A stretch of 11,321 bases of DNA from a virus (IMGVR_UViG_2671180814_000016), one strand, 5' to 3'; shown: positions 1-11,321, numbered from the stretch's first letter. Numbers and translations: made by a program. Notes: generated by a model not told the origin, from the letters alone.

Positions 1-435
1 AACAGATGTCTGGAAATATAGGGGCAAATCCACATTCTTATCGGTTACTAACGGCTTTAGTACTGAACTGGTTTCAATAGCTGGAAGAAATTTACCATCC
101 TTGAATTTCTTCACTTCTGATTCAGAACTACTACCAAAAGCAAAGTTACAGGGATCATTAGCCATTAGGTTAAATGCAATTGATTGTAGTACTGTAGTTT
201 TCAAAAGCTGGGAACAAGATTGAAGTACAATCTTTTTAGTACTTCGCTCTTGAGCTATATCCATTGGTTCTTTTTGGAAACTAAACGGAACCCAATCAAG
301 GCCCATATTCGGCCCGTCCACAAATTTAACTACACCATTACTAATCCACTCACTCGTTTTCTGTATCTTCGGCGGTTGTATCGTCGGTAGTACTTTCTTC
401 AGTATCCTCGTTAATTTCTTCTTGTTTGTTTCCAT
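1..435 (-). CDS. terL: Terminase large subunit (GpA-like), N-terminal 145 codons; 3' end runs off the left edge of the window
   Basis: Hand translation of the minus strand from ATG (plus 433..435) is open to position 1: [62 protein letters not shown]... The SEW..N and W.PF.FQ.E motifs at residues ~28-55 resemble the lambda gpA N-terminus as recalled (VEWADAN...WETLPFQRAIMNAM). Start overlaps the 3' end of terS in another frame, as Nu1/A do in lambda. Not in the ORF track because the stop lies outside the window. Confidence 0.6.
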
Positions 436-895
436 CCTCTATTACTTCCATGTCATCGGGTAACTCAAATTCCATTGAGCCTAATTGGTATAATGTTTTA
501 TCAATATGCGTTCTTAATACATCGCGTAAATCCTTTGCATCTGATTGTGCAAATAATTCAAGATAAGTTTTTGATGGTATTGCACGCACTGCTGTTTTGA
601 CCTGGAATAGATATTCCGTTAGTACCTGTTCTATATATTCAGTACTGACCACCAGCCCATTCTTTTCTGCTAATTCTAATTCTGCTAACTGCCGTTCTGC
701 TGAAAGCTTCTTCAAACGCTCTTGTTCAATTTGTTCTTTTGTATTAGTATCACGCAACGGCTTTAGTACATTATCTACAATCCAACTTCTTGCGTTTGAA
801 TCAGTGTCTGTCGGCATTCCCTTTTCTACCCAAGTTCGAACTGTAGATTCATCGTATCCGTACTGTCTCGCTAATGACCTTAATGAGATATCCAT
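350..895 (-). CDS. terS: Terminase small subunit, lambda Nu1-like (N-terminal HTH); unusually acidic C-terminal tail
   Basis: 181-aa ORF with ATG start and RBS AAGGA 6 nt upstream. N-terminus [21 protein letters not shown] aligns residue-for-residue with the lambda Nu1 winged-HTH region as recalled (LADIFGASIRTIQNWQEQGMP); EQERLKK matches Nu1 ENEKLRR. Same length as Nu1 (181 aa). Followed by the overlapping terL start. Confidence 0.8.
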
Positions 896-930
896 ATTTG
901 TTCCTTTTTATTTTATTTATAGGGTTTACA

Positions 931-1494
931 ATGTCAGACCGTAACAATGATTTTTCTCTGTTAGTAAAATTGCTGAACGGATTTTTGAAGAAAGATGAGA
1001 TAAAAAAAAGACTATATTCTTTCGTGAAAAAAGAAACTAATGATTGGGAAAAGTGGCTGCAAATAGAATTTGCTCATTATCTAACTTCAAAAAGGAAGTA
1101 CGAGCTACATCGTGAAGTTACGATATACCTCGATCCAATAGATTATCCTGATAGTAAACTTGCTAAAGTAGATTTGATACTGCGTGAAAAATCCACACCC
1201 TCTGATGATTATATTTTTATTGAGTTTAAATGTACTAAAGGTGTAGTACCATTAGTTAGGGGCTTAAATGCTGACAAAAATAAAATTAGTGCTATAAGAC
1301 AGTGTAACTACAAAATGCGTAATTATCTTGGTGTCGGATTTCATCTTTTTTGTGAACCAGATGATATCGAGTTTATGGAAAAGTACGTAACTGAAGAACT
1401 TAAAGGCTCTTACGCCGTGTTTAAATTATGCGAGTGTCCAGTAAGATATAATTGCCAATGTGAATTTAATGAAATTGGTGTGGTACTTTTTTAA
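931..1494 (+). CDS. Hypothetical protein, possible PD-(D/E)xK / VRR-NUC-like nuclease fold with Cys-rich C-terminus
   Basis: ORF-track ORF 874..1494; the ATG at 931 (MSDRNNDF...) is the likely start because 874 would overlap the divergent terS start. Weak SD-like AGGG 6 nt upstream. Motif pattern E ([10 protein letters not shown]) ... D (AKVDLIL) ... ExK (YIFIEFK) ... Q (ISAIRQ) fits restriction-endonuclease-like spacing. C-terminal [11 protein letters not shown] cluster. Fold assignment is by motif only. Confidence 0.55.
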
Positions 1495-1639
1495 ATGCGG
1501 TGCGGGTATGATCATTTTGTTCACACACAATTGATTAAACCCGCTGCCGAAAACCCTCGATAGTACCGCCAGTATGGAGGGACCCATTGAATGCAATGGT
1601 TAATATACTTTGTAAGCTATATACAATGAATCATGAGTA

Positions 1640-1942
1640 TCAAAGCCGCTTACATTTAATATCATCGTACAAAGTTCCTTCTTTGTTTAGATATCTCGAA
1701 CCGTAATTATATCCATCATCAAATGCTTCATTGGTTATTACCAGTTCCCTGTAAAATTTCTCATCAGGTGCTGTTTCATAATGAAATGCACCATAAGGCG
1801 GCGGCATTTTACCGAGATATCTTGTAACGTAGAAACTCATGTCAGTACTAAATGAATCGTTATGAATATCCCAGCATTTAAAGTCTGGAATAGCTGCACT
1901 TGTTGTTAAAGGTAATAATAATAGCAATATCAATTTTTCCAT
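1640..1942 (-). CDS. Small secreted protein (signal peptide, two Cys), unknown function
   Basis: ORF-track ORF 1640..2002 begins at a TTG. The internal ATG at 1940..1942 gives MEKLILLLLLPLTTSA|AIPDF, a typical Sec signal peptide with an A-x-A-like cleavage site. Mature protein ~84 aa. No strong RBS. Confidence 0.5.
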   Translation of the reverse strand: MEKLILLLLLPLTTSAAIPDFKCWDIHNDSFSTDMSFYVTRYLGKMPPPYGAFHYETAPDEKFYRELVITNEAFDDGYNYGSRYLNKEGTLYDDIKCKRL

Positions 1943-2105
1943 AAGAGATACCAATGCAAATGATTTAATTGCATGATAACACCTACAAAGTCTCAATACC
2001 AATTAACAAGCGATATGGCTGATTTTGTTTCAATTACGTAAAATAATTTAAAATATCGTTAATTAAAACAATTGTGATGAAATGCTCACCTTGTAATTTG
2101 TTGCG

Positions 2106-9738: not shown

Positions 9739-9778
9739 CTCATGGTTTCATCGCTCCTATTCGTTAGTGAATGACGCT

Positions 9779-9807
9779 ATGGTACTGGTTTAACGTTGAA
9801 AAGTCAA
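9779..9807 (-). promoter_or_regulatory. Putative sigma70 promoter (TTGACT-17 bp-TACCAT) for the 9337..9738 gene
   Basis: Minus-strand -35 TTGACT (plus 9802..9807) and -10 TACCAT (plus 9779..9784) with a 17-bp spacer, ~40 bp upstream of the ATG at 9738. Sequence-only call. Confidence 0.4.
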
Positions 9808-9824
9808 AAAAGTTAATTTTACCC

Positions 9825-9853
9825 TTGACTATTCTAACACACGCTGATATAAA
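9825..9853 (+). promoter_or_regulatory. Near-consensus sigma70 promoter with extended -10 (TTGACT-17 bp-TGaTATAAA), back-to-back with the minus-strand promoter and directed toward the recombinase 3' end
   Basis: Plus-strand -35 TTGACT 9825..9830, 17-bp spacer, TG at 9845..9846, -10 TATAAA 9848..9853. No credible plus-strand ORF downstream. Confidence 0.4.
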
Positions 9854-10033
9854 TGATTTGCTGTATTTTGCACGGAAATCTTAAACCCATCGGGTGCGTA
9901 GTTATATCCAAAATTCATAATCCCTCTTTTATTGCTCTATCTACAATGCCGTTAGATTTCGACATCGTAGATATATTGTTCAAATATTAACTCGCATAAT
10001 TCATTCTACAAGACCATAAATTCTCATTAGCTT

Positions 10034-11321
10034 TTAATCCATCCAATCAATCATATCTTCATTAACAATGATCTCAAATTTTTCACGCTTGAGAAGATTA
10101 AGATACAATCCAACATCATCAAGTATTTTGGTACGGCTAATGGCAAGCGACCACATATCAGTACCAGATGTAACGGAGGCAATGAAAACGGTTTTGCCCT
10201 CTTCATTGACAGTGTAGACACGCTCGCCGCTTGTTTCAGAGATTACGATCTCATGTAGTACTTCACCCCCGCCCCGCTTGTTATCAATCACAAGCGTATG
10301 GGATAGGACATCATTGAAGTATTCCAACTGTACAAATATACGCTTTTCAAAAACCCAGTACTTAACAGATTTCAGTACTAATCTTACTTCTTTCCGTAAC
10401 TTTGCACGTAACTCGACATTCAATGGATCAAGTACTTTATTAATATCGAAATCAAATACAGGGATTTCTTTGATGTTCTTTGAATTTAATATCTCAGATT
10501 CTATTTCTTCAATTCTATCCTGTACCTCAGTTAAACCCGTCATTAATGGTAACGAGGCTTTCTTACCTGCTGCCTTACGTTCATTAATTTTAACCTGATA
10601 GGTTTCTGCCTCTTTCTGTAAAGTACTTAACTCTTCTCGCAATGATGCAAGCAATGAATCTGAATCCGACTTACCTTCCATCATCAATTTATTGAAGTCT
10701 ACATTTTTGACAAGCTGTAGAATGTTCTTTTCAATTCTCATGTACTGGATAGATTTAGCATCGCAGATCTTCTTTTCTTCCCTGTTACGACAAATAACAT
10801 ACTTAGTTCGTACATGATTATAGTGAATTGCAATATTGCCCCCACAGTGACCGCATTTCAGCATCTTCGGGAAGAGGTTAGTAATGTAATCATCCTGAGC
10901 AATGGTAATGTCCTTACGGATACGATTAGCTATACCATTCCGCGATAACTTCTCATTAGCCCGTTCAAAGGTGAGGTTATCGATAATCTTCATGGTAACT
11001 ACTTTCTTATCACGTAGTACCCTCAGTACATTGACGGTACTCCACCCTTTCGGCAAGCGTTTTACAATCGCCCCTGAACCAAGGCCTGTCTCATAAAGTT
11101 TAAAAATCTCTCGGACAACTTCTGGTTCAAGTAATAGATCCTCTGCTGGCTTCTTCTTCTCCAACATAACGCGATCCATCATTCTATTCGCTGTCAGGAA
11201 CAACTCTTCGTCGATGATTTTCGGGTAAACGTTTGGTACTACCTCACCGTTGTAACGTTCATGCTCGCCCAACAAACGGCGATCACGTATCTGAGGTGTA
11301 CTGGCAATAGCGGACACTACC
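10034..11321 (-). CDS. Large serine recombinase/integrase, C-terminal ~428 residues; 5' end (catalytic resolvase domain) beyond the right edge
   Basis: Frame is open to the window edge; the ORF-track start at 11317 is a GTG and probably not the true start. Contains recombinase-domain-like segments (YPKIIDEELF, EPEVVREIFKLYETGLGSGAIVKRL), a zinc-ribbon motif (CGHCGG...C..C) and a coiled-coil-like stretch (LREELSTLQKEAETYQVKINERK), the architecture of large serine recombinases. Confidence 0.65.
   Translation of the reverse strand, partial: VVSAIASTPQIRDRRLLGEHERYNGEVVPNVYPKIIDEELFLTANRMMDRVMLEKKKPAEDLLLEPEVVREIFKLYETGLGSGAIVKRLPKGWSTVNVLRVLRDKKVVTMKIIDNLTFERANEKLSRNGIANRIRKDITIAQDDYITNLFPKMLKCGHCGGNIAIHYNHVRTKYVICRNREEKKICDAKSIQYMRIEKNILQLVKNVDFNKLMMEGKSDSDSLLASLREELSTLQKEAETYQVKINERKAAGKKASLPLMTGLTEVQDRIEEIESEILNSKNIKEIPVFDFDINKVLDPLNVELRAKLRKEVRLVLKSVKYWVFEKRIFVQLEYFNDVLSHTLVIDNKRGGGEVLHEIVISETSGERVYTVNEEGKTVFIASVTSGTDMWSLAISRTKILDDVGLYLNLLKREKFEIIVNEDMIDWMD

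Follow-up and report, generated by a model that had tools for sequence, protein, structure and literature searches.

It is textbook knowledge that restriction enzymes select against short palindromes in the genomes of phages, and both depleted restriction palindromes and enriched functional words are well known. We analysed an 11,321-nucleotide stretch of viral DNA (IMGVR_UViG_2671180814_000016; called the window here, meaning the whole of this stretch) which, judged from its genes, is the integrase-to-terminase arm of a prophage truncated by the insertion sequence (IS) IS2, and which belongs to an uncultured family of temperate phages of Enterobacterales. In this family the palindrome GTAC, and above all its extended form AGTACT, is strongly over-represented. 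The avoidance of Type II restriction sites by phages likewise concerns palindromes of 4–6 bp, is genome-wide and is independent of reading frame. The family shows this avoidance in its classic form for GCGC, GGTACC, CGTACG and others, and in the window also for CTAG, but for GTAC and AGTACT the sign is reversed, with 2.5× and 8× the expected numbers across the family.

Chi sites, FtsK-orienting polar sequences (KOPS) and DNA uptake sequences (DUS) are, like GTAC, short words dispersed at high density which appear to be selected, and GTAC and AGTACT resemble such functional words in marking the element's own DNA, AGTACT being ~40-fold denser than in the host. However, Chi and KOPS are asymmetric and orientation-biased and their readers are known, whereas GTAC is palindromic, strand-balanced, graded over 4–8 bp and carried by a phage. 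Uptake signal sequences (USS) and DUS are 9–12 bp long and enriched a hundred-fold or more in a competent host, while here the maximum is 31× (for the octamer CAGTACTG) and the host DNA does not carry the motif. The repair bias of Dcm and Vsr in E. coli, by which CCWGG is raised and CTAG lowered, is alike in its random genome-wide scatter, but the source words which it would predict are not depleted in the family (GTAT/ATAC 0.89, AGTATT/AATACT 1.08) and no methylase/Vsr pair was found among ~55 family proteins scanned. The motifs of orphan methylases, such as GATC, are also enriched palindromic tetramers in an element encoding a methyltransferase; in this case, however, the family methyltransferase is also found in phage RB49, which avoids the motif. 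The signature of the family (GTAC, AGTACT, CA/TG flanks and loss of GCGC) is held in common with Klebsiella phage RaK2 and Escherichia phage 121Q, which are unrelated virulent myoviruses of ~346–349 kb, so that the signature and not ancestry is what is common; unlike the prophage family, RaK2 does not avoid GGTACC. Full-text literature searches (prophage, methylome and RaK2) returned no prior description of GTAC/AGTACT over-representation, the passages which name either word being irrelevant, and we did not find it described before that a restriction-type palindrome is enriched 2.5- to 8-fold genome-wide, together with total loss of GCGC, convergently in two unrelated phage groups.

By exact count over its 11,321 nt the window has a G+C content of 36.9%, and it contains 110 copies of GTAC where 38.0 are expected from base composition (ratio 2.90), which ranks GTAC first in over-representation among the 256 tetramers. 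The initial annotation had estimated about 104 copies against ~40 expected at ~37% G+C, with ~84 of the 104 in an AGTAC or GTACT context; in the exact count 90 of the 110 carry a 5' A and/or a 3' T. For AGTACT, which had been put at about 33 against roughly 4 expected, there are 34 copies against 3.8 (ratio 9.05). Two palindromes of the same composition, which had been reported to be near expectation, are so over the whole window as well (CATG 46/38, ACGT 30/38). The GTAC excess in the window is thus confirmed as real. In a survey of 200 genomes the mean GTAC ratio was 0.71 with a variance of 0.05, the lowest variance of any palindrome (PMC3077040), and from these values the ratio of 2.9 lies roughly 10 standard deviations beyond the usual range.

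Codon-aware null models were run on 18 open reading frames (ORFs) comprising 8,718 nt of the window. Under a synonymous shuffle, which preserves the protein sequences and codon usage, 88 GTAC were observed against 48.3 ± 5.3 (1.82×, z 7.5) and 25 AGTACT against 6.2 ± 2.3 (4.0×, z 8.1), both above the limit of 1.5-fold over such a null which the initial annotation had set for its claim. Permuting codons within genes gave 2.31× for GTAC (null 38.1) and 7.15× for AGTACT (null 3.5). A Markov-3 model, which carries no information on a 4-mer such as GTAC, predicted 18.7 AGTACT in the window against the 34 observed. In its EAL-like gene the initial annotation had seen GTAC in at least two coding phases; over the 18 ORFs it was found in all three (39/23/26), with 10.1 copies per kb in coding and 8.5 per kb in non-coding DNA of the window. 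The two half-words AGTAC and GTACT are balanced, at 62:62 overall and 48:49 in coding orientation. The enrichment is uneven along the window, with an observed/expected ratio (O/E) of 4.7 at positions 2701–4530 and of 0.96 at positions 4531–6770.

We found the same signature throughout the prophage family. The loci sampled (43 + 31 + 70 + 8, giving >100 loci) come from at least 8 enterobacterial genera, and all of them have GTAC at 1.5–3.7× and GCGC at ~0, in both genome arms and at terminase identities down to 60%. AGTACT mostly lies at 4–13× across these loci, the main exception being lineages of the type of L120 (IMGVR_UViG_2847085930_000003). The family backbone carries about one GTAC per 110 bp and one AGTACT per 350 bp; compared to this, host DNA is poorer ~4-fold in GTAC and ~40-fold in AGTACT. 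In the E. coli DNA flanking the prophages GTAC is found at 0.37–0.63×, with 2 AGTACT in 27 kb and GCGC at 1.5×, and these flanks show none of the host enrichment which the initial annotation had named as refuting its claim. Within the prophages the signal is confined to the backbone: IS elements and a group II intron inside one prophage do not carry it, and GTAC in inserted IS elements and cargo genes is found at 0.2–1.0×, compared to 2.8–4.1× in backbone genes. In the intact E. coli prophage the latter are the terminase, portal, capsid and tail fibre genes, while a cargo gene for an ATP-dependent nuclease has 0.17×. The suggestion of the initial annotation that the excess could be a host-specific signature therefore fails on the flanks, the IS elements and the cargo. 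What carries the GTAC excess is the duplex DNA of a single phage lineage, and neither the proteins nor the host of the phage account for it; it is a DNA-level, strand-symmetric and position-independent feature, specific to the long-resident backbone and kept through deep divergence and in many hosts.

The signature also occurs, convergently, in an unrelated group of phages of the same hosts. A scan of IMG/VR for triplets of AGTACT returned members of the family and the Klebsiella jumbo phage RaK2. In three windows of RaK2 (125 kb) and in 30 kb of Escherichia phage 121Q, GTAC is found at 2.1–2.8× and AGTACT at 6.7–8.9×, with zero GCGC against 13–37 expected and with the same preferences for A at position −1 and C at position −2 as in the prophage family. 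The tetranucleotide usage of RaK2/121Q correlates with that of the prophage family at r 0.78–0.83 (zero-order) and 0.86–0.93 (maximal-order Markov), compared to 0.91 between RaK2 and 121Q and 0.2–0.55 for T5, RB49 and E. coli. When 180 kb of RaK2/121Q was compared protein by protein with the prophage family, lysozyme was the sole protein in common, and a concatenated query of 20 unknown family proteins matched 30 phage records in total, none of them informative. RaK2 is reported to have two DNA methyltransferases and to resist methylation-sensitive enzymes (PMC3622015); one of the two, gp194, is a C5-cytosine methyltransferase. Other coliphages are without the signature: RB49 has GTAC at 0.57× and 0 AGTACT against 16 expected in 50 kb, phi92 has 0 AGTACT against 10 expected in 30 kb, and T5 has GTAC at 0.87×. 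Because RB49 and phi92 are unmodified low-G+C coliphages and lack AGTACT in the stretches read, AGTACT is normally a costly site to carry.

Three unrelated environmental viral contigs of IMG/VR (L177, L209 and L227; 60 kb, 278 kb and a third length unrecorded) have GTAC at 3.6–4.4× and AGTACT at 11–17×. It should be noted that these were not counted as independent cases, because one large, internally repetitive ORF is common to all three and the enrichment may be local.

The anatomy of the signal was determined from 690 kb of pooled family sequence, in which GTAC is found at 2.46×, the AGTACN words at 2.2–3.4×, AGTACT at 8.25× and CAGTACTG, the favoured context C-A-GTAC-T-G, at 31×. The effects of the half-site positions roughly multiply (A at −1, 1.7×; C at −2, 1.6×), G is disfavoured and T not favoured at −2, and the information is confined to ~6–8 bp. 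AGTACT is the sole strongly enriched hexamer palindrome, the runner-up reaching 1.66×, and ~28 of the 64 hexamer palindromes lie below 0.3×. This agrees with the premise of the initial annotation that phages avoid short palindromes, as does the lack of AGTACT in RB49 and phi92. Hexamers which themselves contain GTAC are among those avoided (GGTACC 0.10×, CGTACG 0.03×), and further palindromes avoided by the family include GCGC, GGATCC, GAGCTC and CCGCGG. Sub-lineage L120 has GTAC at 1.9× and AGTAC at 2.6×, but for AGTACT the ratio to the number expected under a maximal-order Markov model is 0.36. Because L120 keeps GTAC and AGTAC and yet avoids AGTACT, the enriched unit is GTAC with flank preferences, from which hexamers can be separately purged.

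The spacing of the sites is Poisson-like (coefficient of variation 1.1), and neither phasing at 10–11 bp nor any regular spacing of GTAC sites was found. The 3-base periodicity of GTAC is weak, at 0.29 compared to 0.66 for a codon-driven word. Which synonymous codon is used varies with the adjacent base, such that GTAC arises in each frame: tyrosine is encoded by TAC in 57% of cases after G vs 23–27% otherwise, valine by GTA in 73% before C vs 39–56%, and threonine by ACT in 71% after xGT vs 40%. In a comparison of relatives 88–96.5% identical (122 kb aligned), GTAC was conserved at 85.0% of sites vs 78.1% for all 4-mers, placing it 6th of 252 words behind ATG-containing words only, and first among the 24 words with one of each base; as the sequences compared are related and not independent, the nominal p-value is not to be taken literally. 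A comparison at synonymous sites showed the same trend, with GTAC lost more slowly.

Our tentative reading, to which we give somewhat less than an even chance, is that a symmetric protein reads a density of GTAC on duplex DNA which selection maintains. We infer, beyond the observations above, that selection maintains the signal, that a protein reads it and that it serves some purpose. Selection would keep GTAC as a dispersed signal that depends on its density and not on where the sites lie. A factor with two-fold symmetry, presumably dimeric, would read this signal on double-stranded DNA, each half-site (5' A, then C) making its own independent contribution. The reader is somewhat more likely to be shared by enterobacterial cells at large than to be a phage protein specific to the family, because the word, its flanks and the loss of GCGC recur in the unrelated RaK2/121Q with no candidate gene in common found in the 180 kb compared. 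Possible readers would include a host enzyme that bends or binds DNA, or a function exploiting the deformable TA step of GTAC. Of the explanations offered by the initial annotation, a recognition motif for a DNA-binding or DNA-modifying activity is the one which best survives, with indirect support from the dyad symmetry, the multiplicative half-sites, the slow loss and the lineage specificity; no reader was found, and the one methyltransferase found in the family does not track the signal.

Several points weigh against this reading. No reader protein was identified in this analysis, and a shared phage gene could have escaped, because the comparison covered about half of RaK2 and 30 kb of 121Q. 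If the reader belongs to the host, phages can do without it, because T5, RB49 and phi92 infect the same hosts and lack the signature. The conservation statistics rest on related, non-independent sequences, and slow site loss with a high equilibrium frequency could instead come from a context-specific bias of mutation or repair. GTAC sites are apparently not generally protected from restriction, because GGTACC (0.10×) and CGTACG (0.03×) are avoided and L120 avoids AGTACT. Finally, the mechanical or topoisomerase version of the idea rests on one structural paper, and the flexible TA-containing tetramers CTAG, TATA and ATAT are not enriched.

A serious rival, which we nonetheless consider rather unlikely, is a neutral by-product of mutation or repair bias, for example a very-short-patch-like correction which would act with a GTAC-specific cytosine methyltransferase during phage replication and turn neighbouring words into GTAC. 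It would fit the Poisson-like scatter, which has no positional logic, the rise of enrichment with residence in the backbone and its absence from cargo, the position of GTAT/ATAC as the lowest of the GTAN/NTAC words (0.89) and the C5-cytosine methyltransferase gp194 of RaK2. However, no single-step neighbour of AGTACT is depleted (AGTATT/AATACT 1.08, the others 1.4–3.4). In E. coli, Vsr depletes its source words far more strongly than it enriches its sink words, and the source/sink pattern found here is the opposite. Moreover, zero C5-methyltransferase or Vsr genes were found among the ~55 family proteins scanned, a subset of the ORFs of a full genome, and it is mainly the host replisome that replicates a prophage, yet GTAC in host DNA and cargo is below 1. 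It is very improbable, in our estimate, that GTAC/AGTACT is the target of the amino-methyltransferase of the family (phrog_3820), with protected sites free or favoured to accumulate. The gene is conserved in its position across at least 31 family contigs and encodes the S-adenosylmethionine (SAM) motif I and an NPPF motif IV, and there is a precedent in haloarchaea, where GATC is over-represented in genomes with a cognate methylase (PMC7230728). On the other hand, 54%-identical homologues are found in RB49-like phages although RB49 has GTAC at 0.57× and no AGTACT in 50 kb, and more distant homologues are found in phages with GTAC at 0.56–0.61×. The protein also resembles enzymes of the rRNA/PrmC type (PF05175 in relatives) and may not act on DNA. 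Because it is common to RB49, which avoids AGTACT, phrog_3820 is unlikely to be GTAC-specific or to be the cause of the signal, and because GGTACC and CGTACG are avoided and the L120 lineage exists, a protective modification of GTAC is less likely in the prophage family; protection alone would in any case predict an O/E near 1 and not 2.5–8.

Selection on DNA mechanics, in which GTAC would be a hyper-flexible hinge (CA..TA..TG in CAGTACTG) easing the bending, supercoiling by type IIA topoisomerases or packaging of AT-rich phage DNA, is in our view improbable. Of all base-pair steps, the TA step in GTAC is reported to deform most readily, and it lay at the centre of a gyrase G-segment (PMC13284261), AT-rich regions bound by H-NS have poor gyrase-motif scores (PMC6379681), and selection of this kind would account for convergence in unrelated phages of the same hosts with no gene in common; against it stand the depleted or neutral state of other flexible TA-containing tetramers, the lack of 10–11 bp phasing, the lack of signal in T5, RB49 and phi92, and the fact that T at −2, also a flexible step, is not favoured. 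The initial annotation had proposed extreme codon-pair bias, by which favoured dipeptides or codons (Val-Leu, Ser-Thr, X-Tyr) would yield GTAC. GTA, ACT, AGT and GGT are indeed preferred codons, and amino-acid order adds a little (null mean 48 with the real order vs 38 with permuted codons), but the excess remains 1.8–4× over the codon-aware nulls, is found in all three phases and in non-coding DNA, is strand-symmetric, and comes with a codon choice which depends on the neighbouring base and with weak 3-periodicity, which leaves this idea next to no probability. It is highly improbable that the DNA shows the composition of its current host, or still shows that of an earlier host of low G+C from which it has not yet ameliorated: the G+C of the element is 13–20 points below that of its hosts, but the present hosts have GTAC at 0.4–0.6×, the signal is stable to 60% terminase identity and across at least 8 genera whereas CTAG varies from 0 to 1.7, the GTAC sites are conserved above background, and GTAC is generally scarce in genomes (mean ratio 0.71). 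We give as little weight to the idea that the sites bind SlmA, a nucleoid-occlusion factor not known outside the host clade, or serve it as decoys, even though the hexamer core of its 12-bp site GTGAGTACTCAC is identical to AGTACT. SlmA requires G1, T2, a purine at 3, A4 and G5 and tolerates a pyrimidine at 6 (PMC3020112). At position 3 the family sites favour C and have G less often, at positions 1–2 they show no preference, GTR/YAC flanks are found at 1.9% of half-sites vs 2.9% expected, and the full consensus occurs once in 401 kb of family sequence and not at all in the window. Priming by DnaG (template GTACTG giving a primer which starts pppAGUAC) was also considered and is unsupported, as jumbo phages have their own primase and CTG alone is frequent.

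Within the window the 34 AGTACT sites start at positions 59, 188, 238, 389, 641, 1844, 2117, 2150, 2511, 2804, 2946, 3129, 3200, 3235, 3306, 3481, 3504, 3679, 3780, 4609, 5294, 6818, 6983, 7246, 7790, 8760, 8828, 9151, 9308, 10257, 10357, 10374, 10431 and 10622. By exact position scan, the fully symmetric favoured context CAGTACTG is found at 640–647, 3480–3487 and 7789–7796. Zero GCGC, CTAG, GGTACC and CGTACG were found in the window.

Positions 1–44 are the end of the IS2 which interrupts the prophage; they contain no GTAC and match IS2 ends at 95–98% in hundreds of E. coli/Shigella records. Next to it lies an N-terminal fragment of the terminase large subunit (45–352, minus strand), severed by IS2, which is an open frame matching the N-terminal consensus of the family TerL alignment and also a "phage terminase large subunit" annotated in E. 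coli AREA_C483. As the IS2 end adjoins this truncated gene, the prophage copy in the window is defective. The Nu1-like terminase small subunit (350–895, minus strand; weak Pfam Phage_Nu1 match) is a backbone gene with 9.2 GTAC per kb. At the other end, a large serine recombinase, the prophage integrase (10034–11321, minus strand; Pfam Recombinase and Zn_ribbon_recom), is represented by its C-terminal two-thirds, runs past the end of the window and contains 16 GTAC (12.5 per kb). Between terminase and recombinase are ~9 kb of small, mostly orphan genes, including two HNH endonucleases.

The densest block of the window (2701–4530) contains 32 GTAC (17.5 per kb, O/E 4.7) and 10 AGTACT, and holds four small genes at 2708–2977, 2985–3347, 3353–3904 and 4097–4408. 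The second of these (2985–3347, minus strand) encodes a predicted lipoprotein of 120 aa with a weak homologue in the jumbo coliphage EJP2 (349 kb; 37% over 75 aa, E 4e-5). Besides lysozyme this is the sole protein link seen between the prophage family and a jumbo phage. The third (3353–3904, minus strand) had been called "EAL-like" in the initial annotation, an assignment for which we found no support: the gene has zero Pfam matches at E ≤ 0.01 and a weak match to an unannotated PHROG, and its sole isolated-phage match is one of 31% identity, to a 2,175-bp record labelled Salmonella phage S.Kent 1-2-1. The block is followed by a cargo island without enrichment (4531–6770; 7 GTAC, O/E 0.96) with genes for a 222-aa membrane protein, a 157-aa protein and a 247-aa HNH endonuclease, and this island may be a defence or exclusion module. 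In the 247-aa protein the HNH nuclease domain is C-terminal and the N-terminal domain is without assignment. Enrichment resumes at 6771–9800 (34 GTAC, O/E 3.5; 8 AGTACT). A non-coding stretch at 6766–7228 contains 6 GTAC, and a homing-type endonuclease (HNH_3/NUMOD4) is encoded at 7812–8366.

The family is represented by prophages and metagenomes only: neither the window (megablast) nor its TerS (tblastn) returned a relative among 50,697 isolated phage genomes. Its members are temperate phages of ~33–38 kb and 36–40% G+C, with lambda-like Nu1/gpA packaging and a large serine integrase. In IMG/VR, 43 relatives of the small terminase were found, the contigs being up to 38 kb long, and a search with the large terminase gave 70 viral loci and 8 prophages, in Buttiauxella, Pluralibacter, Scandinavium, Phytobacter, Pseudescherichia, Kluyvera and Rahnella. 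The terminase region was found in 2 of 5,426 complete E. coli genomes, as a degraded prophage between mipA and yeaG and as an intact prophage inserted in ybhA (E. coli ESBLEC_MG48), giving at least two insertion sites for the family (ybhA and the mipA–yeaG interval). The E. coli AREA_C483 copy is also full of IS elements (IS5, ISSen4 and IS3 family) and contains a group II intron. No recognisable repressor, replication initiator, helicase or primase was found among the ~55 family proteins scanned. Several HNH_3/NUMOD4 and SegE-like GIY-YIG endonucleases are present in the family, which is unusual for a temperate enterobacterial phage. The 236-aa phrog_3820 amino-methyltransferase lies at the far end of the prophage, outside the window. 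Its 54%-identical homologues in RB49-like T4-type phages are conserved through the C-terminal region (RB49 24465–25304; family contig L001 11909–12619), and phrog_3820 (236–280 aa) matches 292 isolated-phage records, annotated variously as DNA, rRNA-G-N2 or PrmC methyltransferase.

Other words are also biased in this DNA. GCGC is found 0 times against 13 expected in the window and 0 times against 10–29 expected per family locus, compared to ~7 per kb in the host, whereas the other G/C-only tetramers are only mildly low (0.66–0.69×). Its loss could reflect restriction pressure of the HhaI/HaeII type, or a phage nuclease directed against a site abundant in the host. CTAG, with 0 copies against 38 expected in the window, ranges from 0 to 1.7× across family lineages and can vary inside a single genome. 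Thus the intact E. coli prophage (L145 20356–42275) has 11, 7 and 13 CTAG per gene in the TerL–capsid region and none over the next 15 kb, which marks it as a recombination mosaic of lineages with different histories. The E. coli Chi octamer GCTGGTGG was found 20 times in one orientation vs once in the other, with ~1.8 expected for each (22 loci, 401 kb, TerS on the plus strand); the majority orientation is that of the packaging genes, and a single copy lies on the minus strand of the window. CAATTG is found at 2.4× in L120, and TAGCTA at 4.3× and 2.9× in the family contigs L123 and L126; sub-lineages may swap or add enriched palindromes. In the pooled family and in the window, the trinucleotide GAC/GTC is found at 0.55×, with GACT, GGAC, AGAC and CGAC at 0.45–0.51×, and CAGCAG/CTGCTG at 3.5×. 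The GAC/GTC depletion may come from avoiding a site of the Type III or primase type.

The combination of high GTAC and no GCGC separates phage backbone from IS elements, from recently acquired cargo and defence genes and from host DNA, and provides a testable handle for recoding, methylome mapping and maps of binding or cleavage. A wider interpretation, which we regard as unlikely, is that enterobacterial phages of at least two unrelated groups write a modification-free "self" label into their DNA, with CAGTACTG/GTAC 4- to 40-fold denser than in the host and GCGC removed. If this were true, a phage- or host-encoded protein would tell phage from host DNA by the two densities, and the label might be used for selective protection, degradation, compaction or topological handling. 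A restriction-type palindrome is found far above expectation in a widespread uncultured prophage family and, independently, in RaK2/121Q. Many other palindromes have been purged from these genomes, and AGTACT itself from those of other coliphages, which points to a selective agent, so far unrecognised, that acts on the DNA sequence of phages in Enterobacterales.

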